Below are positions 590 through 25,400 of a stretch of DNA of 64,000 nt, piece after piece. Numbering within the stretch: position 1 is the stretch's first letter; each line of letters opens with the position of its first letter. A program made the translations under genes and the position numbers. The notes beneath the pieces were generated by a model. The model saw only the letters and a program-made list of their open reading frames with translations, did no database searches and was not told the origin of the DNA. The DNA is from an uncultured bacterium (GTDB taxonomy: Bacteria > Patescibacteriota > Minisyncoccia > Phycocordibacterales > Zambryskibacteraceae): contig CAWBLF010000003.1 in assembly GCA_963789635.1 (NCBI GenBank), positions 67,388-131,387 of the forward strand. The letters are read 5' to 3'.

Positions 590-1798
590 TTACGATATTC
601 CTCTGATTATCATCACTGTGCCCGCTTGTTTTGAGGAACAAAACCTCATCACGTCCACATGCTGGGGCAAAGTGGACTCCGTCCCCGTGACGGGTTTTAT
701 GACGTTTTCACTCTTTGCACAATCTTCACTACAAACTTCCTGTGTGCAAAGAGTGATATCCATCCCGTTTTGGGCGATGACTTTTGAGCCCTTTCCGTAC
801 ATGTAGACCGGTTGAGTCCACTTACCATCAGTCGTCGTGTTTACGACGACGGTGTCGATTTTGCCAGACATTATGGCGATTGCCTCCGCCTGGCGGGGAT
901 TGCTCTGTGGTGCAACTTCACCACCGCCCCTTCCCGATAACTCATGATCTCTCCAGCAAGGGGCTGAGCTGTTCCACGGAGTCGTACCCCTTTCATTGTA
1001 TAGCGCTTGCGCAACCTCCATGTTCCCGCGCAGGGTACTTATGTTTCGGCCCGACTGAGCGACGAAATCGCTGTTTGCGATTTCGTTTATCTGCATGACA
1101 CCGAGGTCGTGAGGGTTTACCTTCCCCCTCAAGACCTGAGTCCTTCCGAGATCCTCAAACTGTCTGAACCCCGACTCGCAGGCCGCGATTTCAACCAGTA
1201 TTGAGTCTTGCGGACTGACTGAGAAGAAAGCGATGACGCTGTCACGGTCCGGTCCGTGAAAATAATCCCTAGGGTTGCCACTGAAATGTCCCGGAACCGT
1301 ATTCCTGTATGGAACGACTGGTCTCGGAATCGGTTTGTGCTCGTATATTGCGTAGCCGATTCCGACTACCACAATCAAAACAAGCAAAACCATTGAGAAC
1401 CCCGAATTATCTTTCTTCGGGATTTTACGAGTGACAACAACTTCCTTCTTCTGTGGAGCTGGGTGCGCGGAACGGTCATCGTCTGAAACGGTTTTTTCTC
1501 TCCGTTTCGTCGCCGCCCAAATCAAAAAAAACATCAAAGCTATTCCGCCGGCCGTTGCAAAGATGATTCCCCATGGCAGCTTCAATCCAGAAACCCAATT
1601 GCCGGTTCTGATGATTGAGGTTGCCACAATGTAAATCATCCCCAGAGCAACGGTGAGAACAACCATTGCTCCGAAGGCCCTCTTCGGATGGGTGTTAATT
1701 TTTTTACCGAGCTTTTCGACTTCCGCCAACACGTATTGGAAACTCTTTTTGAAAAAAGTTTCCAAATTGATTTTCCAGCTATGCAGTAGCCCTTTCAT
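590..1798 (-). CDS. membrane protein with transglycosylase-like (Rpf/lysozyme-like) domain
   Basis: Three N-terminal TM segments; motif AACESGF...GVMQINE...W..PCW resembles the PF06737/SLT-type lysozyme-like fold. Confidence 0.5.
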   Translation of the reverse strand: MKGLLHSWKINLETFFKKSFQYVLAEVEKLGKKINTHPKRAFGAMVVLTVALGMIYIVATSIIRTGNWVSGLKLPWGIIFATAGGIALMFFLIWAATKRREKTVSDDDRSAHPAPQKKEVVVTRKIPKKDNSGFSMVLLVLIVVVGIGYAIYEHKPIPRPVVPYRNTVPGHFSGNPRDYFHGPDRDSVIAFFSVSPQDSILVEIAACESGFRQFEDLGRTQVLRGKVNPHDLGVMQINEIANSDFVAQSGRNISTLRGNMEVAQALYNERGTTPWNSSAPCWRDHELSGRGGGEVAPQSNPRQAEAIAIMSGKIDTVVVNTTTDGKWTQPVYMYGKGSKVIAQNGMDITLCTQEVCSEDCAKSENVIKPVTGTESTLPQHVDVMRFCSSKQAGTVMIIRGIS

Positions 1799-1948
1799 GC
1801 TACCCCCCGTATTTTGGACGATGGTTTTGTTCGAATCAAAGAACTTATATACTATTATAATTATAGCATGTTTAATACCGATTTGTCAAATAAAAAAGAA
1901 AGGCCAAACACATATGTGCTTGGCCTATCCGTAACTCGAACTAACTTT

Positions 1949-3160
1949 CTATTGCGATGGAACAGCGCTAGGTGCTGGTTTTTCTCTCAGAGCCCCTAGG
2001 TCAATGATTTGCCCATGATCTGCACCAAGGGTTAGCACCTGGATGTTGGTCTTTTCGATGGCTTCTGCCATACGAATTGCAGGTCCCCCGGGCGCCTTTG
2101 CTACCGGCAAAATCGCCCGTTTGACATAGTCGGCAGACACGTCATTTGCCAACAGACCGACAGCCCGGGCCGCTTCCCCCTCTATGACCTTGGTCTTTTT
2201 ATCCATTTCTGCCTGGAGAAGTTGAGCGGCAGTTTCGCCTCTCTTGGCGATAATTACCATTCTTCTTTCGGCTTGGGCTACCTGAACGCGAGCCTTCTGC
2301 TCGCGCTTGGTGCGCTCTGCAAGCTCAAATAGTGCGCGTTCTTTGGCGTTGACATCCAGGTGGTAAACCTCGGTGTCAAATATTGAGAGGCCGATTTGTT
2401 CCTCGGCTTCAGCAATGATACTGTCCACGGCCTTTGCTATCTTCTCTTTGACCTCTTGCTTGCCGGCAAGAATTTCTTCGGGTTTCATGGTTCCTGTGAT
2501 AGCCACTACTCTTGCATTAGCCATAATAGTAATTATGGCATTGGCATCGGCTACTCGCAGGACAGATCGGACAAAATAAGTCCGCTCCCATAGAAAATTG
2601 AGACCAATATCCACCGTGAAAGTTCCCTTGGCCTCCGCGCCTTTGATATCAACCGCAAGCGCTCCCGAAAAAAACGGAAATAGTGTGTCGTAGGTTCTGG
2701 ACTCTACCCCGTACACATCCTCGTCCTCACCTCTTTCATTTTTCCGAGTCGTTTTCGTATAGCGGAGTTCGTTGATAGTGCAGACTCGGATTTCTCTCCA
2801 CGGTCCAAGGAAAAAAGCTCCCCCAGTAATCCAGTGCCAGAAACCCCAATCTTCTTCACCCTCAATCATCTGCCAAGCCATCGGATCAGGGCTAATCTTT
2901 TTACGTTTCTTCCCTGGGATGCCGTGAATCAAATTAAATACTGGACCGCCACTTCTCACGACTGTGCCGGTGGCATTGTCGCGAACATTGGTGTTTTGTT
3001 TACCCACGACCAATGCTCCTGTATTTGCGGGGACAAACACCCACCACCTTTTGTCGGTGATGGAGTATTTCTCTGCTGAATGTCGGATCCAAAAAATTGC
3101 TCCAACAACCAGCCCTACCACAGTTAAAGTGGCGATGAGAATCGCAAAAATGTTGAGCAC
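1949..3160 (-). CDS. SPFH/band-7 (flotillin/stomatin-like) membrane protein
   Basis: N-terminal TM, SPFH-like core, long Ala/Glu-rich coiled-coil tail (AQAERRMVIIAKRGETAAQLLQAEMDKK). Confidence 0.7.
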   Translation of the reverse strand: MLNIFAILIATLTVVGLVVGAIFWIRHSAEKYSITDKRWWVFVPANTGALVVGKQNTNVRDNATGTVVRSGGPVFNLIHGIPGKKRKKISPDPMAWQMIEGEEDWGFWHWITGGAFFLGPWREIRVCTINELRYTKTTRKNERGEDEDVYGVESRTYDTLFPFFSGALAVDIKGAEAKGTFTVDIGLNFLWERTYFVRSVLRVADANAIITIMANARVVAITGTMKPEEILAGKQEVKEKIAKAVDSIIAEAEEQIGLSIFDTEVYHLDVNAKERALFELAERTKREQKARVQVAQAERRMVIIAKRGETAAQLLQAEMDKKTKVIEGEAARAVGLLANDVSADYVKRAILPVAKAPGGPAIRMAEAIEKTNIQVLTLGADHGQIIDLGALREKPAPSAVPSQ

Positions 3161-3298
3161 GGTAGTTCTCCTTACGATTTGAGTAAAAAAGTTAGTATGT
3201 TTAACGATCTAGTTCTGTTTGAATGCTATCACAAAATAACAAAAAAGTCAAATATGAAAATAGAGTAAATAACGCAAGTATGATAAAGTGTTTTCCAT

Positions 3299-3534: not shown

Positions 3535-3607
3535 TGCGCCCACCTGGATTCGAACCAGGGACCATCTCCTTAAGAGGGAGTTGCTCTACCAACTGAGCTA
3601 TGGGCGC
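3535..3607 (-). tRNA. tRNA-Lys (anticodon CTT)
   Basis: Reverse complement gives GCGCCCA-TA-GCTC-AGTTGGTA-GAGC...ACTCC-CTCTTAA-GGAGA...CCTGG-TTCGAAT-CCAGG-TGGGCGC-A. Confidence 0.8.
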
Positions 3608-3631
3608 AAAAAATGAAACCAAAAATAAACA

Positions 3632-3715
3632 GGTGGGTCAGGAGGGAGTCGAACCCTCATCCGCATAGCGGATAACATTTTAAGTGTTACGTGTATACCA
3701 TTCCACCACTGACCC
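3632..3715 (-). tRNA. tRNA-Leu (anticodon TAA)
   Basis: Reverse complement gives GGGTCAG...TAACA-CTTAAAA-TGTTA, long variable arm CCGCTATGCGG, GAGGG-TTCGACT-CCCTC, CTGACCC-A-CC. Confidence 0.8.
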
Positions 3716-3717
3716 GT

Positions 3718-3791
3718 GGAGGCGTGGAGGGGAATCGAACCCCTGAATAAAGCTTTTGCAGAGCTTCGCCTTACCACTTGGCTACCACGCC
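3718..3791 (-). tRNA. tRNA-Cys (anticodon GCA)
   Basis: Reverse complement gives GGCGTGG-TA-GCC-AAGTGGTAA-GGC...AAGCT-CTGCAAA-AGCTT...AGGGG-TTCGATT-CCCCT-CCACGCC-T-CC. Confidence 0.8.
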
Positions 3792-3841
3792 CTATTTTTT
3801 CATCTAAAGTGCGGACGAGCGAACAGGGATTCAACTAAATA

Positions 3842-4174
3842 CTAGTCTGAATTTGATAGAAAATCAATTTTCTGGCGATTCTTTTCGCCAAGATCAAGAG
3901 CAAAAGAAATATCAGGCGCTCTGCCGATACGGGATTTTTCTCTGATAAACATTCTAAATTCTTTGCGTTTTCTTTTTAAAAAATCAGAAGCGGCTTCCTC
4001 CTGATTATCGGGTAGCACCGTAAAGAAAACGGTCCCGTATTTATTGTCCGGAGAAAGTTTACAGCCGGTCACTGTGATGAGGGAAGTGCGATTTGACTCT
4101 ATGCCGATGAATTCGGCTGCGAGATGAGCGATAAGCTCAGGCATTTTTTCGTTGTGGTAGCTTGTTTGTCTCAT
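3842..4174 (-). CDS. rbfA: ribosome-binding factor A
   Basis: 110 aa; RbfA-like sequence; immediately downstream of infB. Confidence 0.8.
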   Translation of the reverse strand: MRQTSYHNEKMPELIAHLAAEFIGIESNRTSLITVTGCKLSPDNKYGTVFFTVLPDNQEEAASDFLKRKRKEFRMFIREKSRIGRAPDISFALDLGEKNRQKIDFLSNSD

Positions 4175-8485: not shown

Positions 8486-11188
8486 ATGCCACCACCATTT
8501 AGCCAATTTACCACCAAAGCCAAGGAAGTCATCCGCAAAGCGCATGAACTGGCCATAGAACGCGGGCAAAATCACGTAAGCCCTATGCACCTTTTGGCTG
8601 CCCTCATTCTCCAAGACGAAAGCATGGTTTCTTCTATTTTGGACCGTCTTGATATAGACACGATTTTGCTCACTGATTCTCTCTTGGAGTCTATTGAGTC
8701 GCCGGATGCCGGTGGCACAATGTCACCTTCGTACCAAATTTATCTTACGCCGGAACTGGCGCAGATTATCGACAGCAGTATGAAAGTGGCTCAGAACTTG
8801 GGAGATGAATTTGTTTCAACTGAGCATCTTTTTCTTTCGGTCATTGATACACCAGGAGTCGCTCACGATTTGCTCGCCCGATTTAAGATTGATCGCGCAA
8901 CAGTGGTGCGTTTGATTGAAGAACTCAAGACGACAAAATCTCATGATGTCAAAGAACCAAAAAAGTTTAAATCAATTCTCAAATATACACGGTCACTCAC
9001 CAAACTGGCGTCGCAGAACAAACTTGACCCAGTCATCGGTCGAGAGAATGAAATTTCACGCATAATTCAAATCCTTTCCCGTCGCACCAAAAACAACCCT
9101 ATACTTATAGGTGAAGCCGGTGTGGGCAAAACGGCAATTGTGGAAGGTCTTGCAATCAAGATCGCAAACGGAAGCGTGCCGGAAAGCCTGCGTGACAAAG
9201 AGCTTGTTTCATTGGATTTGGGAATGCTCATTGCCGGGACAAAATATCGCGGAGAGTTTGAAGAGCGATTGAAAAATATTTTGAAGGAAATTGAGCGCTC
9301 GGAGGGCAAAATTATTCTTTTCATTGATGAAATCCATACGATCGTGGGCGCGGGAGCCGCAGACGGAGCTATGGACGCGTCAAATATGCTTAAGCCGGCA
9401 CTTTCACGAGGAGAATTGCGAGCGATAGGGGCAACTACTTTGAAAGAATATCAAAAACACATTGAAAAGGACCCGGCTCTTACTCGTCGTTTTCAGCCTG
9501 TATATGTCAACGAACCATCGCAAGATGATGCCGTCACTATTCTTCGTGGTTTAAAAGAAAAATATGAGCTCTACCACGGAGTACGTATAACAGATGATGC
9601 CATTGTGGCGGCAGTAAACTTCTCTTCACGATATATCACGGATCGTTTTTTGCCTGACAAAGCGGTGGACTTGATAGACGAAGCGGCTTCTCATTTGAAA
9701 ATTTCTCTGGAAAATATGCCACCCATACTTGAGGAAACTCATGCCAAGATTATGAAACTTGAAATTGAAAAAGAAGCGTTGAAAAAAGAAGCCAACGGGG
9801 GTAAAAATTCCAAAGTTAAGGCGCGAGTCAAAGAAATCACGGAAGCGATAGCGGATTTGAAGGAAAAAACTTCCGAGATTGAATTAAAGTGGAAAAACGA
9901 AAAAGAAACGGTAAACGGCATCAAGTCGGCCAAAAAGGATTTGGAAAAATTGCGTTTGGAAGCCGAATCTGCCGAAGCTCGGGCCGATCTTTCTCTGGCT
10001 GCTGAAATTCGTTATGGCAAGATTCCTACAATAGAACGAGAGCTTGACCAAAAGAGTAAGAGGCTAAAGCGTTTGCAAAGTTCTCGCAGAATTCTCAAAG
10101 AAGAGATCACTGAGTCGGACATCGCCGATGTGGTGGCGCGCTGGACAGGTATTCCCGTATCAAGGATGCTTGAAGAAGAAGCAGAAAAACTTTCGCGTAT
10201 GGAAGAATTTCTCAAGAAAAGAATTGTCGGTCAAGACGAAGCGGTTCAGAAAATTTCAGATACAGTCAAGCGATCCCGAGCCGGCATATCGGACCCGAAT
10301 CGACCCATCGGTTCATTTATCTTTCTCGGTCCGACCGGAGTGGGCAAGACTGAGCTGACCAAAGCTCTTGCTGAATTTATGTTTGATGATGAAAAAGCGC
10401 TCATTCGCGTCGATATGTCCGAATTTATGGAACGTCATGCCGTGTCAAAACTTATCGGCGCGCCACCTGGATATGTAGGACACGATGAAGCGGGGACGTT
10501 TACGGAGCTCGTCCGTCATCGACCCTACTCGGTCATACTTTTTGATGAAATAGAAAAGGCGCATCCCGATGTCTTTAATATTCTATTGCAAGTTCTGGAC
10601 AACGGTCGTCTGACCGACTCAAAGGGCAGGGTGGTGAACTTCAAAAATACGGTGGTTATTTTGACATCAAATATTGGAGCCCAATACATAGATAAAATGG
10701 AAAAAATCGGTTTTGCTGAAAAGAGTGAAGCAAAACAAAACTACGAAGAGGCAAAACAAAAAGTGATGGAAGCGCTAAAAGACAGTTTCCGTCCGGAATT
10801 TCTTAACCGTTTGGATGATATTATTCTCTTTAATATTCTTTCACCGGAAGCTGTGGAGGATATAGTGAGAATCCAAGTTGAGCTGGTAATGAAGCGACTG
10901 GCAGAAAAGGAAATTACCCTAGAAGTTTCAAAAACCGCATACGAATTTTTGGCCAAGGAAGGATATAATCCCCAATACGGAGCCAGACCACTCAAGCGCC
11001 TTATCCAAAACAAAATTCTTACACCTGTCGCCGGTATGATGATTTCCAAAGGAGTATTGAAAGGAGGAACCGTTACCGTCGATGTGAAAAACGGAGAGTT
11101 TGTTTTTGATGTTAAGAAAGGAAAAAAGGGAAGTCTTTGGGTGGAAAATCTGACTGAAAGGAAAGAAAAAACCGGAAAATCCAAATAA
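8486..11188 (+). CDS. clpB: chaperone ClpB (AAA+ disaggregase)
   Basis: Clp N-domain, NBD1 [15 protein letters not shown], long coiled-coil M-domain, NBD2 [15 protein letters not shown], ClpB C-terminal domain; 900 aa. Confidence 0.9.
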
Positions 11189-11429: not shown

Positions 11430-11434
11430 CATGC

Positions 11435-11458
11435 AAACCCCGAAAGGGGTTTTGCTTT
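11435..11458 (+). terminator. Rho-independent terminator after tRNA-Tyr
   Basis: AAACCCC-GAAA-GGGGTTTTGCTTTG. Confidence 0.6.
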
Positions 11459-11587
11459 GTGCGTCGAGCAAGCAAACTACTTTGCTTGCATGGAAGATTC
11501 GAAAACCTTGAGTATATCGCGTAGCGATAAGAAAGGTGCACAGCTCCTGTCAGGAGAGAATCTTTGTGAACACCAAAAAGAAGCTTT

Positions 11588-13649: not shown

Positions 13650-13800
13650 GATTGCGGGCGGTGAAGGAATCGGTCGGACGTCGATTTCTGCTGAAATCGC
13701 GCACGACCCTGCCTCGCGCCACCGCGCTCCGGCTTTCGATTCCTTTCGCACACGCAATGATGTTCCACTCGGAAGTCTCAGCGGTCTTGCGTGATCATTG
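13650..13800. mobile_element. about 128-bp tRNA-flank module between a 22-bp direct repeat of the tRNA-Trp 3' end (M1 motif)
   Basis: ATTGCGGGCGGTGAAGGAATCG at 13651-13672 and 13797-13818; between them hairpin CGATTTC-tgctg-GAAATCG and a GC-rich second hairpin shared with motif copies at 21962 and 25021. Confidence 0.5.
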
Positions 13801-14882: not shown

Positions 14883-15629
14883 TTATATTGATCCTCCGCT
14901 CGGTATTGAACCACCGCTCTGTATAGAGCCACCACTAGGAATCGATCCGCTCTGTATTGGTTGTGTTGTGGATATAGACCCACCGCTTGGGATAAATCCG
15001 CCCGCGTAAATATATCCGCCAGGAGATGCGGGATTATATGCTCCGGTTGGAAAATATAAATTGTTCCCTAGGCTAATGCTCGTATTGCAGTAGTAGAAAT
15101 AGGTGTAGTAATAACCGCTCGTTGTAAAATGTTTTTGAGGAAATACTGTCACGCTTGAGCAGGTGTTGATTGATCCTCCGGTAGCTATAGAACCTCCCGA
15201 TGGTATTGTGCCACCGCTATTAATAGTGCCACCGTTCGTACCGGTAGTACCACTTGATTGTCCAGTTTGGTTGCTTGAAGTAAATGCTCCAAGAATCTTT
15301 TCCAAAAGGCTTTGCTTTGGTGGTGGCGGGTTTGAAGAAACAACGTAATTGGGACATGCAGGATCCTGGGAATTGATCAATCCATTGCCTGCGTTATCGA
15401 CACTTACAAAACATTTCGGACAATTGGAATCCTGCATATCGGTTTTTCCATTACCGTTGTTGTCTACGCCGTCAAAACACATAGCGTAGAAGTTTGCGGG
15501 GTATGGGTCGGTGTTGCTTGGAAACTCGGCTTTGACAATGGCTATGGGAATAAATAGCATCAAAACAAGCCCGATGGCAAAAGCCGGTTTAATTTGAACG
15601 TTTTGGAGTTTTGATTTAATTGATTTCAT
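14883..15629 (-). CDS. secreted Gly/Ser-repeat protein with Cys-rich D-x-D-x-D-G modules
   Basis: Signal-peptide-like N-terminus; CFDGVDNNGNGKTDMQD...C repeats (calcium-binding-like); C-terminal (PSGGSI)n low-complexity repeats. Confidence 0.4.
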   Translation of the reverse strand: MKSIKSKLQNVQIKPAFAIGLVLMLFIPIAIVKAEFPSNTDPYPANFYAMCFDGVDNNGNGKTDMQDSNCPKCFVSVDNAGNGLINSQDPACPNYVVSSNPPPPKQSLLEKILGAFTSSNQTGQSSGTTGTNGGTINSGGTIPSGGSIATGGSINTCSSVTVFPQKHFTTSGYYYTYFYYCNTSISLGNNLYFPTGAYNPASPGGYIYAGGFIPSGGSISTTQPIQSGSIPSGGSIQSGGSIPSGGSI

Positions 15630-15771: not shown

Positions 15772-16398
15772 TCAATCATTTATCCAACTTACCTTGGTTA
15801 GGGTGTTGACGGCATCGACTTCTTCCTGAGTCAGCCTCTCTTGTGGCTGAAAGGAATTAAGCAAATCACGATACTTCAGAGCCGAGGATTTCATTTCTGG
15901 TTTGCCGGTCACGGCCCTCATGAATGCCATGATGCTCGTCCTATGTGAGCTGATTAGTTTCAATCCGCTCGGATGTTTGTCATTCAAAAGAGTGGACACT
16001 TCGACCCACTCCAAAGGGCCGTGAAATTCATCTGGATCGTCTTTGTCGATCTTGGAGAAATTTCGTATCTCTCCCTTTTTGATCTCCATAACCACGGAGA
16101 TCTTGGCATGGTATGCGCCTGAATTTTTCTGATCGGAATCGAGCGTCGCGCTTGCCATGCTTCGGATTTCCACCTCGAACTTCATTTTGTCCTTTGCGAC
16201 CTCTTCTTCGGCGCCACGATACGCCGTTTGACTGACGGATTCACCGTGCTTGCCGGTTTCTGCCGGCAGACGAAGAGTCGTATATGCCCTGGGGGAACCG
16301 TAGTGCTTTGTGTAGGGCATAATGGCAAGAAGAATAGTGCCATCGCTCTCAAACTTCGGAATGATGATTTGTACCGTGTAGCTTACAATCGGTTTCAT
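15772..16398 (-). CDS. hypothetical protein
   Basis: 208-aa ORF; no confident family assignment (weak Nudix-like feel only). Confidence 0.35.
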   Translation of the reverse strand: MKPIVSYTVQIIIPKFESDGTILLAIMPYTKHYGSPRAYTTLRLPAETGKHGESVSQTAYRGAEEEVAKDKMKFEVEIRSMASATLDSDQKNSGAYHAKISVVMEIKKGEIRNFSKIDKDDPDEFHGPLEWVEVSTLLNDKHPSGLKLISSHRTSIMAFMRAVTGKPEMKSSALKYRDLLNSFQPQERLTQEEVDAVNTLTKVSWIND

Positions 16399-16524
16399 TT
16401 GCCCTCCTAAGGCAAAGAGATGAACGTTCTATGATGATTGCCATGAGCAATCATTCTCGCACTATTATATTATATACTTTAACTATTGTCAAATCATCGA
16501 AATGAAGCAATGTTTTTTACAATA

Positions 16525-16547
16525 TGGTGCCGGAGAGAGGACTCGAA
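16525..16547. repeat. 23-bp direct repeat of tRNA-Leu(CAA) 3' end (candidate distal att site)
   Basis: TGGTGCCGGAGAGAGGACTCGAA is identical to 22079-22101; an imperfect inverted copy TTCGAGTCCTCTCAC at 16619-16633 lets the interval fold into a long hairpin. Confidence 0.6.
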
Positions 16548-16666
16548 TCTTACAGATTCGGTACACCTTTCTTATCGTACTCCCCGCTAGCGCGTGGTCC
16601 GTGCGATATACTCAAGGTCTTCGAGTCCTCTCACGCAAGTAAAATAATTTACTTGCTTCCGACACG

Positions 16667-17068
16667 CAAAAACCCCTAAAAGGGGTTTTCTTGTGCTGTA
16701 ATTATACACTTTGCGCGAACCTTTTTCGAGCGGAAACTGAACGAATGAATCAGCCCCGCCACCGCCTCGCAGAGCCTCGGCGGACACCAAAGAAAAATGT
16801 TCCTTGCTTTTCGGATTTGCGCGCGACCAATTTCTTCTAAAAAGGAAAGGACATTTTTCTTTGGTGCTCTGCCCTCCAAGTATTCGGGCAGGTGGCGGGA
16901 CTAATGCGGACGAGGTTTTGCGAAAACTTTTTTTTGGGGAAAGGATTTCGCAAAACACTCGGCTAATCTTTTTTGAATTCGGAAGTCGCAAGCGGAGGAG
17001 GAGGGGTTTGGGGAGGAATCCTCCGCTTGCTCCGCTGTTTTCTTTTTGGGGATTTCGGGCGGGCGGTG
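16667..17068 (-). repeat. about 400-bp inverted repeat, copy 1 (non-coding, structured)
   Basis: Reverse complement is about 90-95% identical to 21547-21940; contains a 20-bp perfect internal hairpin (CACCAAAGAAAAATGTCCTT...AAGGAACATTTTTCTTTGGTG) and a CCCC/GGGG terminator-like hairpin. Confidence 0.7.
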
Positions 17069-17079
17069 GACTAGAAATA

Positions 17080-19071
17080 CTAAGGAATAAGTCTTTTGTA
17101 TGTCCTTGGGAAAGGAACGGCGTCTGAAATCATTTCTTTGGCTAGAATTTTAGCAACAAGTCTGTCCAACCCAAGACAAAAACCTCCATGATCTACAGCT
17201 TTGTCTACAATAGAAATATAAAATTCATAATCGCTTATATTGATTCCTGACAATAACATTGATTTTTTAATTTGTGCCCCGTCTGTTTGTCTAATCGCAC
17301 CACTTACAAGCTCCCAGCCATCAACGATAATATCAAAAGTTTCAGTCAATCCACCAGATTTATTTTTTGTATAAAACTTTTTTATCGTATCTGGGTAATC
17401 TTTTATGATAAAAATATCACTAGCATTTCTGCTTTTGATTAACTGACCTAATTTAGCTTCACTCACTAGGCCAAGATCATCGCCCATTGTTACGGGGTTA
17501 CCATTTTCTTGAAGCAGTTTGACTGCTTCACAATATGTCAGCACAGGAATTTTATCAATTTCAGGTAGAACCAAATAGCTTGTAAGACTAAAAGTTTTAA
17601 TCAAATCATCGTTTGTCTTCTTAATTATCTGGCAAGCCAAATAATACAAGTTCTCTAAATTCTTTGGATTTTTCAACTCAATATCTAATCCAATTGATTC
17701 TTGTAGGTGTCGATAGGATTCACTCGTTTCTTTCCTCCAAAAGGGGCCAATTTCATATATCTTCTCCAGACCAGATGCAACAAGAATTTGTTTGTAGATT
17801 TGATTAGATTGTCTCAAAAACGCAGGAGCTCCATTCATCCAATCTACATTTATTGTCCCTCCCTTATCAACTTTTGGTGGGTCGGTAGAAAGGCCTACGA
17901 TATATGGTGTCGTTACCTCTAGAAACTTTTGATCATCCAAATAATTTCTGATAATTTTGTACATTTTACTTCTCTGACTGACCAAATCTAATTTATCCTT
18001 ACCCAGCTTTTTAAAATTACTTTGTCTTTGTTGATTTATATACAGCTTTGCGACATTCCTGTTAATTTGATCAACAATTACACCTAATTTCTTGTCTATA
18101 ATACTTTTTGCTTTACTAATTTCATTTTTTCTTGCCCCAACATTGTTTTCTGCGATTTCTGATAGTTTTTCTATCCCAATAAAGCTACTGACTTTGCCCG
18201 CTAACAATGAGGGCGTTGATAAATCAACAAAGAAAATCCTGTTAAGATCATCAATCTTGTTTAGCAAACCGCCTACAACTCGCTTGGTCTCGGCATTATT
18301 ATCAAGAGCAATAATAATACATGCTATATCTTCCGATGATTTGAAATCTGCAAAAGACGAGTATTGAACACTCGTTTCATTAAGATTTTCTTTTGGAACA
18401 TCAATAATTGTCCTATTGACTATGTGTAGTGGCAAAGCATTTTCTACGTTTAAAATTTTAGCAACAAGCTTTCCGGACTTCCCATAACCAATTAATACAG
18501 ATCTCTTTCCTTCTGGGATATTTTTTACCACAAGCTCACTTGCTATTCTTTCCAAAGAAGTGTTCCCTTCAAAAATACTAGTTTTTAGTTTACATTCATT
18601 GGCAAGCTCATTAAGCCAATCAGCAATGAATACAAAAGGGCTTCCATCTCCGTGTATTCCAGACTTTAATCCTTCAGCCATTTGCGATAAAACCTGAGAA
18701 TCGCCAATTGTAACGCTATGAATTCCGACAGCACATTCGCCTAAAAATTTTATAGCGTTGATCTCATCATAAAATTTTATATCCCTAATCAAACTCATTA
18801 TTCCACCATGTGCATGAGAATCCCAAGTTGATAACATTCTCCCTCTCAGATACTCAAAAGAAAGATCGTCTTGGTAAGAAATTAACAACATAACAGCATT
18901 ACACTTCTTTATCACTGCAATAGAATCAATATTAAGTCCTAGATCATTTTTAAATTGATTTAGAAATTCAGAATCATTTTTTAGATCTGCCAATTGTAAA
19001 TTACTCAGAGCCTTTTCATCAAGTCTTTGATAGTTCAACGCTGCACAAATTATTTTATTAGAGAGTGTCAT
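17080..19071 (-). CDS. fusion protein: glutamyl-tRNA reductase-like (HemA-like) N-domain plus class II aaRS (AspRS/AsnRS-type) catalytic core
   Basis: N-terminus aligns with GluTR (CN(A) active-site Cys region KKCNAVMLL, GDSQVLSQMAEG, Rossmann VLIGYGKSGKLVAKIL...IVNRT, FFVDLSTP); C-terminus has class II motifs 1 to 3 (FLEVTTPYIV; IGPFWRKETSESYRHLQESIGLDIE; HGGFCLGLDRLVAKIL) and no anticodon-binding domain. Confidence 0.55.
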   Translation of the reverse strand: MTLSNKIICAALNYQRLDEKALSNLQLADLKNDSEFLNQFKNDLGLNIDSIAVIKKCNAVMLLISYQDDLSFEYLRGRMLSTWDSHAHGGIMSLIRDIKFYDEINAIKFLGECAVGIHSVTIGDSQVLSQMAEGLKSGIHGDGSPFVFIADWLNELANECKLKTSIFEGNTSLERIASELVVKNIPEGKRSVLIGYGKSGKLVAKILNVENALPLHIVNRTIIDVPKENLNETSVQYSSFADFKSSEDIACIIIALDNNAETKRVVGGLLNKIDDLNRIFFVDLSTPSLLAGKVSSFIGIEKLSEIAENNVGARKNEISKAKSIIDKKLGVIVDQINRNVAKLYINQQRQSNFKKLGKDKLDLVSQRSKMYKIIRNYLDDQKFLEVTTPYIVGLSTDPPKVDKGGTINVDWMNGAPAFLRQSNQIYKQILVASGLEKIYEIGPFWRKETSESYRHLQESIGLDIELKNPKNLENLYYLACQIIKKTNDDLIKTFSLTSYLVLPEIDKIPVLTYCEAVKLLQENGNPVTMGDDLGLVSEAKLGQLIKSRNASDIFIIKDYPDTIKKFYTKNKSGGLTETFDIIVDGWELVSGAIRQTDGAQIKKSMLLSGINISDYEFYISIVDKAVDHGGFCLGLDRLVAKILAKEMISDAVPFPRTYKRLIP

Positions 19072-19817
19072 ATGTTTTTATGAATAACTTCTACAGTTGC
19101 TTGGTGTAGTGGAGTAACCGTAATCTCATTTATTTGAACATGTTCTGAAAGATTTATTACATATTTAATAATATCAGCAATGTCGTCTCCTGATAATGGC
19201 TTAATCCCTTTGTATACATTTTTAGCTTGTTTAGTATCTCCGCCGAAACGAACATTACTAAAGTTTGTTTCAACTAATCCTGGCTGTATATTTGTTACTC
19301 TAATGTCATTTTCTACTACTTCCTTTCTAAGTCCGTCAGAGATAGATTTTACAGCCGCTTTCGTTGCTGCATATACAATACCTTTGGAATAAGATGAGAT
19401 ACCTGCAATAGAACCAATATTGATAATATGTCCGCTGTTTCTTTCTTTCATACCCTTAAGCGCAAGCTTGGAAACCATAAGCAATCCTTTTATGTTGGTA
19501 TCAATCATCTGATCCCAATCCTTTATACAACCGTCTTCTAGTTTTTCTAATCCTAAAGCAAGACCAGCAGAGTTTATTAATACGTCTGGATAAAGATTGA
19601 GAGATTCTAAATTTTCAAACATTTTAGAAATCTGGGACTGGCTAGTAACATCAACAGCGAAAACATGTACGTCCTTATTGTTGCTTAGCTCTGATTTAAT
19701 ATTTTCTAACCCTGAGAGATTTCTGGAGCACAAAATCAATCTATTTCCGTCAGACAGTTTTTTGACACATGCCAATCCAATACCACTGCTTGCTCCTGTA
19801 ATTAGTATCGTTTTCAT
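19068..19817 (-). CDS. short-chain dehydrogenase/reductase (SDR)
   Basis: TGASSGIG cofactor motif, NSAG, catalytic YAATKAA; 4-nt start/stop overlaps with neighbours indicate an operon. Confidence 0.8.
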   Translation of the reverse strand: MKTILITGASSGIGLACVKKLSDGNRLILCSRNLSGLENIKSELSNNKDVHVFAVDVTSQSQISKMFENLESLNLYPDVLINSAGLALGLEKLEDGCIKDWDQMIDTNIKGLLMVSKLALKGMKERNSGHIINIGSIAGISSYSKGIVYAATKAAVKSISDGLRKEVVENDIRVTNIQPGLVETNFSNVRFGGDTKQAKNVYKGIKPLSGDDIADIIKYVINLSEHVQINEITVTPLHQATVEVIHKNI

Positions 19818-21232
19818 AGAGAAGATTTTTTAAAGTTTATTCCCAGCTCAACTTTTTGCTTTTCAGATATTTCAGCTGGCGCATTCATCATTAAATCTTT
19901 TCCATCACCCGTTTTTGCAAAAGCAATGATCTCCCTAATATTTGGCTCCTGTTCAAGGATCATCATAAGTCTGTCGAATCCCCACGCAATGCCACCATGC
20001 GGTGGAGCGCCAAGCTCCAACGCTTTCAACATATGACCAAAATTGTTTTCTATTCTTTCATTGTTATACCCCATAATCTCGAAAGTAGTTCGTAGTGCAG
20101 AAGGTTTGTGATTCCTTATACTTCCGCCGCCGATTTCGAGCCCATTCAAAGTAATATCGTATTGTGTGGTAACAATTTCTCCAATACTTTCTTTCCGCAT
20201 AAATTTCTCAAAATCATTGTCTCTTGGTTTTGAAAAAGGATTATGGGTGAATGTCCACTCGCCAGTGCCATCAACATTATCCTCTCCTGTCTTTTCAAAC
20301 ATAGGGAAATCTACAATCCAAAGAAATGCAAGAAGATTTGTGTCTGTTTTATCCTCTCTTATGTCAGGTTTATCATTCCCATATTTTTTCATTGCTTCTT
20401 TGTAGGACATTCTCGGAAACGGTATTTGTTGTATCTTTTTTTCCGGATAGTTTATTTTTACGATATCAATTAATAGTTTTTCATTTAATTGCATAATGTC
20501 ATCTTCAGTAACAAAGGACATTTCCATATCAAGCTGAGTAAACTCGGGCTGTCTATCCCCGCGAGTATCCTCATCTCTCATACAACGCGCAAACTGAAAA
20601 TATTTTTCAAAACCGCCAACCATCAAAAGTTGCTTATATTGTTGCGGAGATTGAGGAAGTGAATAAAAACTTCCTTTGTAAATTCTGCTTGGCACAACAT
20701 ATGAGCGAGATCCTTCAGGTGTTGGCGCAGACAAAAGAGGCGTTTCTATTTCTAAAAAGTCATCTTTTCCAAGATAATTTCGAATGAAATTTTGAATCTT
20801 AAATCTATTTGCAATATTTTTGTGCATTCTGTCGTTTCGTAAATCCAAATATCTATATTTGAGACGAATAGATTCATTCACCTCCCTAGTATCACCACTA
20901 ATCGGGAACGGCAAAGTTGCCGATTCATTTAAAACATTGATATGCAAAATCTCAAGTTCTATATCTCCATTTAGTATTCCTAATTTTTTATTTTTCTCGG
21001 GTCTTTCGTTTACCTTTCCAGTAACTTCAACTACAAATTCTTCTCGTAGAGTTTTACCGACTTCCATTGCATTACTGTTTGGTAATATCACACCTTGTAC
21101 AATGCCTGATGTATCACGAAAATCCAGAAAGATCATTTTCCCTTGATCACGGCGAACATTAACCCAACCATAAACAATGACGGTTTCCTGTTTTTTTCCT
21201 GACAATTCATTTATGTAAGTTCTTTTTTGCAT
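19814..21232 (-). CDS. aspS: aspartyl-tRNA synthetase, bacterial type lacking the GAD insertion domain
   Basis: OB-fold N-domain, RLKYRYLDLR, motif 1 FLEIETPLL, QSPQQYKQLLMVGG...FARCMRDEDTRGDRQPEFTQLDMEMSF, GGGSIRNH, motif 3 HGGIAWGFDRLMMIL; 472 aa with no approximately 110-aa GAD insert. Confidence 0.8.
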   Translation of the reverse strand: MQKRTYINELSGKKQETVIVYGWVNVRRDQGKMIFLDFRDTSGIVQGVILPNSNAMEVGKTLREEFVVEVTGKVNERPEKNKKLGILNGDIELEILHINVLNESATLPFPISGDTREVNESIRLKYRYLDLRNDRMHKNIANRFKIQNFIRNYLGKDDFLEIETPLLSAPTPEGSRSYVVPSRIYKGSFYSLPQSPQQYKQLLMVGGFEKYFQFARCMRDEDTRGDRQPEFTQLDMEMSFVTEDDIMQLNEKLLIDIVKINYPEKKIQQIPFPRMSYKEAMKKYGNDKPDIREDKTDTNLLAFLWIVDFPMFEKTGEDNVDGTGEWTFTHNPFSKPRDNDFEKFMRKESIGEIVTTQYDITLNGLEIGGGSIRNHKPSALRTTFEIMGYNNERIENNFGHMLKALELGAPPHGGIAWGFDRLMMILEQEPNIREIIAFAKTGDGKDLMMNAPAEISEKQKVELGINFKKSSL

Positions 21233-21237
21233 ATACT

Positions 21238-21447
21238 TTATTTCATTAAAACATCAAGCGAAACGCCAAGCGCGTCTGCAATTTTTTTGACTGTATCAAT
21301 AGTAGGGTTGGGCGTTGAGCCAGCTTCTATTTTAGCAATTGTATGAAAAGCCAAATTTGCCTTTTTTGATAAGACATCTTGAGAAATGCCGAGCTTGTTT
21401 CGGTATTTCTTTATGTTGTCCCCAATTGTGGATTTATCGTTTGACAT
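21238..21447 (-). CDS. XRE-family helix-turn-helix transcriptional regulator
   Basis: 69 aa; HTH_XRE pattern IKKYRNKLGISQDVLSKKANLAFHTIAKIEAG. Confidence 0.75.
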   Translation of the reverse strand: MSNDKSTIGDNIKKYRNKLGISQDVLSKKANLAFHTIAKIEAGSTPNPTIDTVKKIADALGVSLDVLMK

Positions 21448-21546
21448 ATTCGTATAGTTTTACTATTATAGTTAGTATGTATATAAAGTCCTAACTATAT
21501 ACGAGTTAGTATATGAAATTTTCACCATTTAGTCAAACGAAATTGT

Positions 21547-21940
21547 CCGCCCGAAATCGCCAAAAGAAAACAGCGGAGCAAATGGAAAATTCCTCCCCAA
21601 ACCCCTCCTCTTCCATTTGCGACATCCGAATTCAAAAACAAATGAGCCGAAGTTTTGGCGAAATCCTTTCCCCAAAAAATAGTTTTGCCAAAACTTCGTC
21701 CGCATTAGTCCCGCCACCTGCCCGAATACTTGGAGGGCAGAGCACCAAAGAAAAATGTCCTTTCCTTTTTAGAAGAAATTGGTCGCGCGCAAATCTGAAA
21801 AGCAAGGAACATTTTTCTTTGGTGTTCGCCGAGGCTCTGCGAGGCGGTGGCGGGGCTGATTCATTCGTTCAGTTTCCGCTCGAAAAAGGTTCGCGCAAAG
21901 TGTATGATTACAGCACAAGAAAACCCCTTTTAGGGGTTTT
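21547..21940 (+). repeat. about 400-bp inverted repeat, copy 2
   Basis: Near-identical to the reverse complement of 16667-17068; followed directly by a tRNA-Leu 3'-end copy (21944-21961). Confidence 0.7.
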
Positions 21941-21943
21941 CTT

Positions 21944-22078
21944 GTGCCGGAGAGAGGACTCGGTCACACATAAAATTCTGCTGAATTTTTGCGCGACCCC
22001 GCCTCGCACCATCGTGCTCCGGCCTTCTCGTCCTCTCACCAAAATATAAAAACCAGCAGTAAGCTGGTATTTATATTT
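21944..22078. mobile_element. about 127-bp tRNA-flank module (M2 motif) between an 18-bp direct repeat of the tRNA-Leu(CAA) 3' end
   Basis: TGCCGGAGAGAGGACTCG at 21944-21961 and 22081-22098; hairpin AAAATTC-tgctg-GAATTTT; GCGCGACCCCGCCTCGCACCATCGTGCTCCGG; imperfect inverted arm CTCGTCCTCTC; AT-rich spacer. Confidence 0.5.
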
Positions 22079-22162
22079 TGGTGCCGGAGAGAGGACTCGA
22101 ACCTCCACCCCTTGCGAGACACGATTTTGAGTCGTGCGCGTCTGCCATTCCGCCACTCCGGC
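22079..22162 (-). tRNA. tRNA-Leu (anticodon CAA), CCA encoded
   Basis: Reverse complement gives GCCGGAG-TG-GCGGAATGGCAGACGC-G-CACGA-CTCAAAA-TCGTG, variable arm TCTCGCAAGGGGT, GGAGG-TTCGAGT-CCTCT-CTCCGGC-A-CCA. Confidence 0.8.
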
Positions 22163-22298
22163 ATTACTACTACTGACAACATACAACTTACAACAAATAA
22201 AATGATGAAACAAGAAGATAATCTTGTGGTGTTACCCAATTTAAATTTTGGCTAAAATTTGTTTGGGATGATTGCTTATTGTATGTTAAAATCAACGT

Positions 22299-23297
22299 AT
22301 GAGCCAATTCTATAAAGATTCTATTTTTTGGATTGAACTGGATAAAATAGAACCCAATCCATTTCAACCTCGTCGGGAATTCAGCGAGCCTGAACTGCAA
22401 AGTTTGGCGGATTCTATCCGTCAATATGGTGTGCTTCAGGCTTTGGTTGTGACCCGCAAGGAATTTCAAAAAGAAGACGGAGGAATCGGAGTGAAATATG
22501 AACTTATCGCAGGTGAACGCAGACTTCGAGCCTCGCGGGTGGCGGGACTGACACAGGTGCCGGTGCTTATTAAGACCGGTGACGACACAGACTTGATGAA
22601 GCTTGAACTTTCCATCATTGAAAATATTCAGCGTGAGGATCTGAATCCAGTGGACAGGGCGAGAGCGTTTGACAGACTTGCCAACGAATTCGGTTTTAAA
22701 CATCACATCATTGCTCAAAAAATCGGTAAAAGCAGGGAATATGTATCAAACAGCCTTCGTCTTTTGATGTTGCCGGATTTTATCTTGCAGGCCTTGAGTC
22801 AGGGTAAAATTTCCGAAGGTCATACACGACCATTGATGATGCTCCAAGACAGGACAGATGAACAAACAGTGTTGTTTAAAGAAATAATGTTTAAAAAATT
22901 GACGGTCCGTGAAGCGGAGGGGATAGCCCGTCGCATCGCCGTAGACAAAGTCCGCAAAAAAGAAAATATTATTGATCCCGAACTTATTGATTTGGAAGAA
23001 AAGTTGCGGGAAGCGCTTGGGACTCGGGTACAGATAGAAAGACGCGAGCAGGGCGGAAAAATTATGATTGATTTTTTTAACAATGACGATTTGAAAGGTC
23101 TTTTGGATATTTTTCAGACAAATGTTGTTAAAGACCCGAACGAAGCTTTGAAAAAATTTGAAACTGAACATGGGCAAGCAACAGGAAATATAGCGCAATC
23201 GGGAGAAAGTATCACAGATGAAATGCCGATTGATGATCGTTCTCAAGCGGAAAAGAATGATGATCAAATGTACTCGGTCAGCAATTTTTCGATTTAA
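22299..23297 (+). CDS. parB: chromosome partitioning protein ParB/Spo0J
   Basis: ParB N-domain GERRLRAS, HTH, C-terminal dimerisation region; 332 aa. Confidence 0.8.
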   Translation: MSQFYKDSIFWIELDKIEPNPFQPRREFSEPELQSLADSIRQYGVLQALVVTRKEFQKEDGGIGVKYELIAGERRLRASRVAGLTQVPVLIKTGDDTDLMKLELSIIENIQREDLNPVDRARAFDRLANEFGFKHHIIAQKIGKSREYVSNSLRLLMLPDFILQALSQGKISEGHTRPLMMLQDRTDEQTVLFKEIMFKKLTVREAEGIARRIAVDKVRKKENIIDPELIDLEEKLREALGTRVQIERREQGGKIMIDFFNNDDLKGLLDIFQTNVVKDPNEALKKFETEHGQATGNIAQSGESITDEMPIDDRSQAEKNDDQMYSVSNFSI

Positions 23298-24976: not shown

Positions 24977-25400
24977 GATTTGGGCACTTGTTATTACTGC
25001 AACGAACAGGGATTGTTTTTGGTCACACATAAAATTCTGATGAATTTTTGCGCGACCCAGCCTCGCGCCGTCGCGCTCCGGTTCACCAAGACCCGCGCGC
25101 AGGCAGCCCCGTTGCCTGCTTCTATTCGGACTTGTCAATTTTGTGTGGATTATGATTTTTGCAAGATTTATTTGAACAGCGCACGGGGATTGTTTTTAGT
25201 CACAAATATTTTGCTCACCGCCATTCGCAAAATTTTGCGACCCCGACTCGGCATTTTTTCTGCTGAAAAAATATGCCTCCGTCTCACAAAAACAAGTGAG
25301 TACGCAGTCTATACTGCGTACTTTCAAAACTACTTCATTAACTTATGCGGATTGTGATTTGGGCAAGCTTTATTACTGCAACGAACAGGGATTGTTTTTG
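24977..25400. mobile_element. about 334-bp insert downstream of topA bounded by 45-bp direct repeats derived from the topA 3' end; holds motif copies M3 and M5
   Basis: 24977-25021 matches 25356-25400 (about 40/45), which encodes the topA C-terminus (CSNKACPNHNPHKL); interior has GTCACACATAAAATTCTGATGAATTTTTGCGCGACCCAGCCTCGCGCC and a rearranged copy at 25215-25275. Confidence 0.5.

Follow-up and report, generated by a model that had tools for sequence, protein, structure and literature searches.

What carried a block of genes low in guanine and cytosine (GC) to the 3′ side of a tRNA-Leu(CAA) gene, and where does that block begin and end? The locus, interval 16525-22162 of a 64-kb stretch of DNA from an uncultured patescibacterium (contig CAWBLF010000003.1; hereafter the window), had been read in an initial annotation as a single genomic islet of about 5.5 kb, with 23-bp direct repeats of the tRNA 3′ end as its attL and attR sites. 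We find that the interval is composite and contains DNA of foreign origin at a site that is empty in related genomes; the backbone of the foreign part recurs elsewhere around other cargo, and its long inverted repeats (IRs) share a conserved fold. The explanation that we favour, and consider probable, is a foreign non-autonomous IR cassette together with two structured units of an unrelated kind, all lying in a hot spot 3′ of tRNA-Leu(CAA).

Both ends of the interval carry the 23-mer TGGTGCCGGAGAGAGGACTCGAA, as had been reported. A pattern search places exact copies at 16525-16547 and 22079-22101, the latter being the last 23 nt, CCA included, of a tRNA-Leu(CAA) recognised by ARAGORN and Rfam, while the number of matches expected by chance is 0 (100 shuffles). 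The third copy, previously given as 18 bp at 21944-21961, is essentially right: it matches at 20 of 23 positions over 21942-21964 (three mismatches) and its exact core is 19 nt, 21944-21962. The low GC claimed for the cargo is borne out by its GC and tetranucleotide profiles. The coding block 17080-21447 has a GC of 0.351 (versus 0.432; flanks 0.435 and 0.431) and is the lowest-GC 4.4-kb segment of the 64 kb, and its tetranucleotide distance (0.0243 against a mean of 0.0134, standard deviation 0.0026, z ~4.2) makes it the most deviant segment of that length. Pfam finds no integrase domain in the four cargo open reading frames (ORFs) or in the two ORFs to their left, p208 and p248, in line with the integrase-free islet first described, and neither a Cas1 casposase nor a family B polymerase in the ORFs of the interval. 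A rough tblastn search with an E. coli XerD sequence has no match in the window or any locus, which is a weak negative.

Comparison with related genomes, which the initial annotation had proposed, covered the ParB-anchored loci of 80 species-representative genomes (L003-L082; best ParB identity 74-78%). It places the organism among the Parcubacteria/Paceibacteria (Zambryskibacteria-like) of the candidate phyla radiation (CPR). The gene order of the clade is tRNA-Tyr, (alr), tRNA-Trp, miaA, tRNA-Leu(caa), parB, relA, topA. The window genes for a fusion protein, a short-chain dehydrogenase (SDR), a helix-turn-helix (HTH) regulator and p208 occur in 0 of the 80 loci, and miaA abuts tRNA-Leu by 2-10 bp in L007, L013, L020, L027, L039, L055 and L062. 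In the closest relative, L004, the order is miaA, a p248 homologue, one small structured unit (type B, described below), tRNA-Leu and parB, and this locus is effectively a cassette-free reference. In the remaining variable relatives, tRNA-Leu is trailed at its 3′ end by 0.7-8 kb of unrelated DNA; a flipped tRNA makes no exception, as the variable stretch is then found on the parB side, between parB and tRNA-Leu. Given the empty sites, the absence of the cargo from all 80 loci and the constant position of variable DNA, we take the segment to have been inserted at a hot spot shared by the clade. The earlier placement of foreign DNA on the tRNA 3′ side is thereby supported; its attribution to the 23-bp repeats is not. 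The flanks were also only partly as described: miaA, named with parB as a flanking core gene, is not the immediate neighbour, since p248 and p208 intervene.

Within L003-L082, tRNA-Leu(caa) is found in either orientation with respect to miaA and parB, and tRNA-Trp and tRNA-Tyr flip too. As the variable DNA stays at the tRNA 3′ side, this suggests inversions that carry the tRNA together with its trailing elements. In L023, a 550-aa large serine recombinase (Resolvase, Recombinase and zinc-ribbon domains; 1551-3203, minus strand) reads into the 3′ end of tRNA-Leu(caa) (1576-1659) and heads an insertion of about 5.7 kb between that tRNA and murA/murB; here the hot spot holds a genuine integrative element. 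In three further loci (L016 6467-7093, L018 6779-7357, L077 8377-8955), the DNA immediately 3′ of tRNA-Leu(caa) contains an ORF resembling a LAGLIDADG-type homing endonuclease.

Within the interval, a cassette extends from about 16688 to 21921, from CTGTAAT.. at its left tip to the complement of that motif at its right. Its order, read from the tRNA side, is IR, XRE-type HTH gene, aspartyl-tRNA synthetase (AspRS), SDR, a fusion of a glutamyl-tRNA-reductase (GluTR)-like and an AspRS-like protein, and IR, with all four genes on the minus strand. The repeats, IR-L and IR-R, are about 405 nt each, 90-94% complementary in the inverted-repeat search and 93.1% identical over 406 nt in the alignment. 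They bound the real unit, to which the suggestion in the initial annotation that the element may use the long inverted repeats points. The inner boundary of IR-L, 17062, is 17 nt from the stop codon of the fusion gene; IR-R, read on the minus strand from its outer to its inner end, closes with a hairpin and T-run at 21547. Each tip bears an outward TATAAT, and the operon promoter lies just inside IR-R. A 33-nt palindromic terminator (T) sits outside the cassette on both sides, and it is followed outward by the end of structured unit B towards the tRNA and by the acceptor-complement of unit A at the distal end; the outer 30 nt of IR-R are in fact terminator T plus the end of unit B.

The same IR bounds a large family of cassettes. 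A degenerate 33-nt inner-IR probe matched at least 120 metagenome contigs and had 0 matches in IMG/VR, on which ground a viral origin of the IR was rejected. Among the matches listed, convergent IR pairs lie 2.0-8.0 kb apart on 21 contigs, and their cargo mostly has a lower GC than the flanks. Cassettes with unrelated cargo agree at almost every base over about 330 nt of the IR, the two IRs of one cassette are often 100% identical, and the outer tips share a motif, GGTG(T)CTGTAAT.. or GGTGTCTATTGTA... The cargo includes restriction-modification (R-M) systems (N6/N4 or D12 methylases with Tsp45I, MvaI/BcnI or HNH nucleases), a Pycsar effector and GmrSD; many family members combine R-M genes with a C-protein-like HTH. 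Other cassettes carry AAA_21 proteins, glycosyltransferases, P-type ATPases, Liv-type and other ABC transporters, a GluRS-like operon, DprA or large unknown proteins. The whole window cassette, IRs included, recurs at 86-89% nucleotide identity in L083 and L084, between TraC/VirB4-like genes on one side and tRNA-Leu(tag) and tRNA-Pro on the other, and the L083 genome has about 50% GC.

What the cassettes share besides the IR is a small regulator. An XRE HTH protein of about 70 aa is the first gene in at least 11 cassettes, and the window HTH clusters with the 70-aa first genes of seven other cassettes. An identical protein (100% amino acid identity) heads other cargo in L215-L219; there, the window segment 21537-21237, which holds the promoter region and the HTH gene, is matched at 91-99% nucleotide identity, and homology stops at the HTH stop codon. 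One of these loci, L215 (1-7801; ERZ978390, groundwater), encodes a GrpE-like protein, an 837-aa Hsp70, proteins of 611 and 313 aa, an AAA ATPase and a DUF6804 protein; it is bounded by a different, related terminal inverted repeat of about 125 nt, whose GC-rich hairpin is opposite in orientation to that of the window.

A cassette need not lie beside a tRNA. Among the matches listed, a 3′-facing tRNA is found at 6 of 44 evaluable cassette ends (0.9 expected, P ~4e-4) and no tRNA is nearby at 37 of the 44, so that adjacency is enriched and not obligatory. In L083, L085, L127, L099 and L114, the IRs are present without type A, B or C units or flanking tRNA-end direct repeats. Cassettes can also form arrays, as two lie side by side in L114 (3622-9127), where IR(-) 3622-3883 is followed by an IR(+) at 4988 that pairs with an IR(-) at 9125; a type-B unit match lies at 3536-3600 of the same locus. 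No integrase was found in about 170 loci (Pfam and a rough XerD tblastn), and no transposase is among the recurrent families in 147 nearby ORFs.

The IR itself has a defined inner end and a conserved structure. Among the matches listed, 88 of about 120 copies end on the same inner base, which corresponds to 17062 and 21547 in the window, while outer starts fall into classes or are truncated, and single-ended copies occur. An alignment of 32 distinct copies gives a multi-helix consensus fold of 68 pairs in which 98.3% of cells are paired, compared with 45-58% when partners are slid. Cells with two-sided changes number 113, against 48±7 in shuffles (0/500 reach the observed value), and 11 pairs covary, against 2-5 in slid controls. 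Two helices need G·U pairs that are present only on the outer-to-inner strand, and a T-run directly after the final hairpin coincides with the inner boundary. With strand-specific pairs and a boundary of this kind, the IR resembles a structured element, RNA or single-stranded DNA, that faces inward and stops where the cargo starts. Rfam covariance models applied to 16300-22300 (E up to 1) recognise only the tRNA, which places the IRs and the units outside known RNA families. A T-box leader, a self-cleaving ribozyme, a tmRNA or tRNA-like gene, IS200/IS605 ends and a bridge RNA were considered and rejected, as there is no Rfam match and the associated protein is lacking.

The direct repeats belong to a second structured family. 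Pieces of the islet boundary recur in the window beside tRNA-Tyr (11431-11560), beside tRNA-Trp (13651-13745) and downstream of topA (25000-25300), and a 21-nt piece of the 3′ end of the window tRNA-Trp is repeated about 130 nt beyond that gene; the unit enclosed between the two is a homologue of the unit at tRNA-Leu. In the relatives, 29 tRNAs (10 Trp, 10 Leu-caa, 9 Tyr) have an extra copy of their own last 18 nt, in the same orientation in 26 cases and mostly 117-160 nt downstream, with no cargo between. The units share an architecture of tRNA, linker hairpin or terminator, imperfect inverted copy of the T-arm and acceptor (often split by an extra hairpin), structured core (of type A, B, C or another) and, last, a repeat of the tRNA end in direct orientation. 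Identity to the tRNA end sets in 0-5 nt into the T-loop in every case, and its far limit varies from 0 to +42 nt past the tRNA. A profile search finds about 60 cores in the 80 loci, nearly all of them 36-90 nt downstream of, and co-directional with, a tRNA; the clear exception is the unit A core of the window (16545-16633), which lies 5.4 kb from the tRNA whose end it bears. Units of about 100-150 nt follow tRNA-Trp, Leu-caa, Tyr, Cys and Leu-tag across L003-L082, and in several genomes type-B units also lie downstream of topA, with arms that resemble the topA 3′ end.

The type-B core fold has two-sided changes at 16 of 23 pairs and conserved G·U pairs on the tRNA-sense strand. Against the local tRNA end, the inverted arm of a unit reaches a mean local score of 8.7, compared with 6.9 for arms taken from other tRNA types and 6.4 for shuffled arms (t = 4.4, P ~2e-4), and it exceeds the 95th percentile in only 7 of 27 cases; the initial impression of strong, target-matched arms was weakened accordingly to a complementarity that is real but modest. 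In L021, tRNA-Trp is followed in tandem by a unit A and a unit B with no cargo, and type-A/B units lie inside long-IR hairpins in L163 (430-530), L138 (505-550) and L115 (960-1045 and 1497-1578). Thus the units also target hairpin loops outside tRNAs, and from the cargo-less tandem arrays and the units seated in IR hairpins we regard them as independent insertions. Since such tRNA-end copies terminate cargo-less units, and since the cargo has IR boundaries of its own, the reading of the 23-bp repeats as attL and attR of the islet is not supported; the units explain them.

Table 1. Features of the interval and its left-hand neighbours, from the tRNA outward (positions in the window)
Feature	Position	Strand	Evidence and remarks
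tRNA-Leu(CAA), intact, encoded CCA	22079..22162	-	ARAGORN; Rfam tRNA 57.3 bits
Linker hairpin/terminator between tRNA and unit B	22037..22083	.	arms 21 nt, 95% complementary; starts at tRNA CACCA
Terminator-like site inside linker hairpin	22052-22068	.	terminator prediction
Unit B (type-B structured unit)	21942..22045	-	nhmmer E=2e-19; 16/23 covarying pairs in fold
Palindromic terminator T, right copy, GCACAAGAAAACCCCTTTTAGGGGTTTTCTTGTGC	21913..21947	.	16-nt arms, 100% complementary
IR-R, right inverted repeat	21547..21951	-	family-conserved part 21547-21921
Cassette promoter/operator region	21448..21546	-	sigma-70-like promoter 21536 to 21508, TTGACT-17-TATACT
XRE-type HTH regulator, 69 aa, first cassette gene	21238..21447	-	Pfam HTH_3 1.2e-15
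Bacterial-type AspRS, 472 aa, cargo	19814..21232	-	Pfam tRNA-synt_2 + OB fold; NCBIfam
SDR, YdfG-like, 249 aa, cargo	19068..19817	-	Pfam adh_short 9e-49; NCBIfam
GluTR-like/AspRS-like fusion, 663 aa, cargo	17080..19071	-	Pfam, NCBIfam
IR-L, left inverted repeat	16658..17062	+	family-conserved part 16688-17062, starting CTGTAATTATACAC
Palindromic terminator T, left copy	16664..16696	.	3-4 mismatches in outer arm
Unit A (type-A structured unit), 5.4 kb off its tRNA	16525..16667	-	nhmmer type A E=2.9e-9 at 16545-16633
p208, strain-specific ORF left of islet	15772..16398	-	12/12 sigma-70-like promoter 16492 to 16464
p248, native gene	14883..15629	-	L004 homologue, tblastn/blastp 33-52% identity, E 6e-34

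The two units of the window follow the general plan. Unit B consists of an imperfect inverted T-arm copy (about 22025-22043), core B (21962-22043 by profile) and, as its terminal piece, the 20/23 tRNA-end copy. Unit A, whose predicted RNA fold has z = -3.2, consists of an acceptor-complement (about 16657-16667), an extra hairpin (16635-16656), a T-arm complement (16618-16632), core A and, at its end, the exact 23-nt copy. When the cassette and one terminator copy are removed in silico, what remains is tRNA, linker, unit B, terminator and unit A, the canonical tandem seen in L021, with tRNA-end copy (a), terminator, inverted copy (a′), core and a second a in succession. As removal restores the canonical order, we interpret the 23-bp repeats as belonging to the ends of units A and B, and the cassette as the later arrival.

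On this basis, the following history would account for the interval. The ancestral locus would have been a tandem of tRNA, linker, B, terminator and A, as after other tRNAs, and the cassette would have landed at the terminator between B and A, pushing A 5.4 kb away. Its backbone is two inward-facing IRs of about 375 nt, a promoter and the 69-aa XRE-HTH; the operon of AspRS, SDR and fusion genes behind them, native to lower-GC CPR genomes, would have been captured. Such cassettes would be non-autonomous, and an IR-recognising enzyme whose gene lies elsewhere would presumably move them. This order of events and the mobilisation in trans are what we infer from the arrangement.

Several observations weigh against a history of this kind. 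A recombinase or transposase is encoded in 0 of the 21 complete cassettes among the matches listed. The single candidate mobiliser, with one of two rve matches located, is an IS3-family transposase in L120 (113-1538), and it was rejected: it belongs to a separate insertion sequence (IS; orfA/orfB, TGTACCC.. ends, 19-nt terminal repeats, GATC duplication), which sits inside the cassette 25 nt from the IR inner boundary and has termini unlike the cassette tips. Variable outer ends and an invariant inner end are unlike what a classical transposon with terminal inverted repeats (TIRs) predicts, and no target-site duplication is clear: L127 has a possible 3-bp AGA, and contigs end within the other copies. 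Of the direct repeats, the distal one is perfect (23/23) and the internal one near the tRNA is degenerate, which would also fit joint arrival of unit A and the cassette. The two terminator copies fit inversion better than direct duplication, as their loops are inverted. Finally, the genome was seen only as this 64 kb; the junction of p208, unit A and IR-L has no confirmation from an independent assembly, with p208 absent from the contig index, and Logan contigs break inside IR-L and inside the tRNA. Near the L127 cassette, a similar IS end lies immediately outside the tip, at about 95-120; the proximity of IS3-type elements to the IRs may be coincidence or an insertion preference next to IRs.

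A bolder explanation, which we advance only tentatively, would make the IR the recombination module of a CPR-wide exchange of cassettes, with the tRNA-end units, separately, a new class of mini-elements of about 130 nt. The IR would then be a strand-specific folded DNA or RNA site, akin to the attC site of integrons or to guide-RNA-bearing IS ends, through which a host enzyme acting in trans would plug regulator-led operons into genomes, including essential-type genes such as AspRS. The units would for their part target hairpin loops (tRNA T-loops, IR hairpins and gene ends) and acquire arms copied from the target.

The main rival of an enzyme acting in trans on the IRs is that no dedicated enzyme exists, and that DNA uptake and homologous recombination exchange the cargo, with IRs and tRNA genes serving as portable homology arms and new sites arising by homology-facilitated illegitimate recombination. 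We think this unlikely, though much of the family could be read in its terms. Identity over some 330 nt is far beyond what a transposase site needs, and the frequent complete identity of IR pairs points the same way. Ragged outer ends and conserved inner ends are what crossovers anywhere in the IR would give; the point at which one cargo replaces another is exactly behind the shared HTH; in L083 and L172, the 3′ end of a tRNA-Leu(tag) is joined to an internal position of the IR at a short similarity, ..CCGGCAC(CA); and a mobility gene was found in none of the cassettes. Natural competence is known for some Patescibacteria, which also counts for this route. What homologous exchange leaves unexplained is the invariant inner boundary, the covariation-supported fold and the arrival of the first IR pair at a naive site. 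Moreover, the arms are mutually inverted, so that a double crossover needs both of them already in the recipient.

The original proposal, in which the whole 5.5 kb is one element integrated through the T-loop and 3′ end of tRNA-Leu(CAA), its integrase lost or supplied in trans, is improbable. In a variant, the element would be similar to a cis-mobilizable element (CIME) and the copy at 21942 an accretion scar. An exact 23/23 repeat that starts in the T-loop is what integrases with a T-loop crossover predict, the hot spot does harbour a large serine recombinase in L023, and the cargo has a tRNA-end copy on one side and a unit on the other, exactly the place expected for the body of an element with unit A as its att end. 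Three nested copies also resemble successive, outward-pushing integrations as in tycheposons (bioRxiv 10.1101/2020.12.28.424599). Against this, the same repeats bound cargo-less units of about 130 nt at 26 tRNAs (29 with inverted cases), cassettes with IRs exist free of units and tRNA-end repeats in the five loci listed above, and no integrase is found in the window or in the roughly 170 loci. In L083, the tRNA-Leu(tag) gene and a 62-nt 3′ fragment of such a tRNA are on the same side of the cassette, with no copy on the far side, so that both tRNA-Leu-like ends flank one side. A single att-bounded island would require that unit A and the cassette moved as one, and the family data speak against this. 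That the repeats and segment are ancestral structure or an assembly artefact, never mobile, can hardly be right: long IRs can mis-join and the Logan contigs stop inside IR-L and the tRNA, but the segment is in 0 of 80 related loci, several of which have miaA abutting the tRNA, its composition is foreign, IR-L and IR-R differ at 7% of positions and are thus separable during assembly, and IR-bounded cassettes were assembled independently in ENA, NCBI and JGI records.

With the IR cassette as the preferred reading, the source of its cargo can be considered. The same operon has a GC of 0.356 in flanks of 0.495-0.499 in L083, and of 0.342 against 0.382 in L085. In the low-GC genomes L089, L091 and L092, the operon GC of 0.28-0.32 equals that of the flanks, and neither the IR nor the HTH is present, which indicates a native operon of low-GC CPR genomes that was captured and exported. 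The homologous AspRS gene of low-GC CPR genomes looks like the housekeeping copy. The cassette AspRS is without the insertion domain and scores well above the NCBIfam equivalog cut-offs (NF001750, 603.7 bits versus 443; TIGR00459, 552 versus 373.85), its matches falling in two stretches because that domain is missing.

The fusion protein joins a glutamyl-tRNA-reductase-like N-terminus (GlutR_N and an NAD(P)-binding domain) to a class II catalytic core of the archaeal or non-discriminating (ND) AspRS type, with no anticodon-binding domain. It stays below the family cut-offs for both hemA (TIGR01035, 67 versus 209.6) and ND-AspRS (NF003483, 214.9 versus 353). Its family comprises 112 clusters, more than 100 of them full-length, and every organism name given by the sources is patescibacterial; close homologues are often on contigs of about 4.3-4.5 kb, the inter-IR distance of the window. 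The fusion gene is nearly always beside a short bacterial-type AspRS, often with an SDR. The combination hints at a reaction, so far uncharacterised, in which an aspartyl or related ester is reduced in a tRNA-dependent manner; no description of such a pathway was found in the searchable literature.

To the left of the cassette, p208 has no homologue in any fetched locus or exact-match index and only a weak NUDIX match. Its GC of 0.48-0.49 is above that of its surroundings, and its promoter is a perfect TTGACA-17-TATAAT. The gene is in the variable region, outside the cassette, and may have been gained at this hot spot earlier and independently. On the other side, a parB stretch (22535-22549, GCGGGTGGCGGGACT) matches the arm of the long IR hairpin (16888-16902 and 21707-21721) at 14 of 15 positions, which is probably chance.

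Judged by architecture, the closest analogue of the cassettes is the class of R-M units flanked by long inverted repeats, described together with 'insertion with long target duplication' (Furuta, Abe & Kobayashi 2010, PMC2853133). Like these, the cassettes are compact, lack mobility genes of their own, have IRs of hundreds of bp and are inserted in otherwise syntenic genomes. In contrast to them, the present family shares one folded IR of about 375 nt with an invariant inner boundary over more than 100 cassettes with unrelated cargo, whereas no shared backbone appears in that paper; it resides in CPR metagenomes, and the window cargo is a non-defence aminoacyl-tRNA-synthetase operon. In tycheposons, successive tRNA-targeted integrations push older elements outward (bioRxiv 10.1101/2020.12.28.424599). 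The locus shares with tRNA islands, CIMEs and tycheposons a hot spot at the tRNA 3′ end, partial tRNA scars, nested or tandem elements and niche or defence cargo. Among the traits of tRNA islands, tRNA-end direct repeats at both ends, absence in relatives and atypical composition are all present, and a recombinase gene is absent. Unlike tRNA islands and tycheposons, which have tyrosine or serine recombinases and att repeats at the cargo ends, it has no recombinase, and its repeats belong to units of about 130 nt.

Non-autonomous composites of TIRs and miniature inverted-repeat transposable elements (MITEs) likewise have inverted repeats, no transposase, many contexts, a tip motif and an outward TATAAT at the tip; the present repeats differ in being 300-420 nt long and most strongly conserved at the inner end, and no autonomous partner or consistent target-site duplication was found. 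The attC sites of integrons and the attP(+) hairpin of CTX phage are folded sites that mimic a double-stranded target. As a working analogy, the IR may be compared with these sites in its sharp-bounded cargo, its strand-specific imperfect palindrome and a fold kept by compensatory changes, and the small units may be likened to target-mimicking folded sites of this sort. Integron cassettes are promoterless, have one attC and depend on IntI and attI, whereas here no IntI or Xer is nearby, the cassette has its own promoter and regulator, and there are two inverted sites, each several times longer than attC. Casposons combine long TIRs with direct repeats at the 3′ ends of tRNA genes, a likeness that extends to this locus; the differences are that Cas1 and PolB are absent, and that the left direct repeat is separated from the TIR tip by unit A.

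No prior description of the IR or of the units was found in the searchable literature, and a widespread family of regulator-led cassettes bounded by structured IRs has apparently gone undescribed so far. With one structured IR and one small regulator, these cassettes carry cargo that ranges from defence, transport and chaperone-like genes to aminoacyl-tRNA-synthetase operons. For genome interpretation, tRNA-end direct repeats in these bacteria are not readable as island boundaries, since small structured units produce them alone. The operon of the window is a pointer to a reductive pathway, widespread in CPR and probably tRNA-dependent, that awaits characterisation, and if its AspRS is the sole one of the genome, a mobile cassette would carry an essential gene. 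CPR bacteria, or Patescibacteria, have tiny genomes with few recognised mobile elements, and their gene exchange is poorly understood. If the IRs are recombination sites, a large uncultivated branch of the bacteria would have a simple, modular means of passing genes horizontally, and the invariant cargo boundary would make such a system directly testable.

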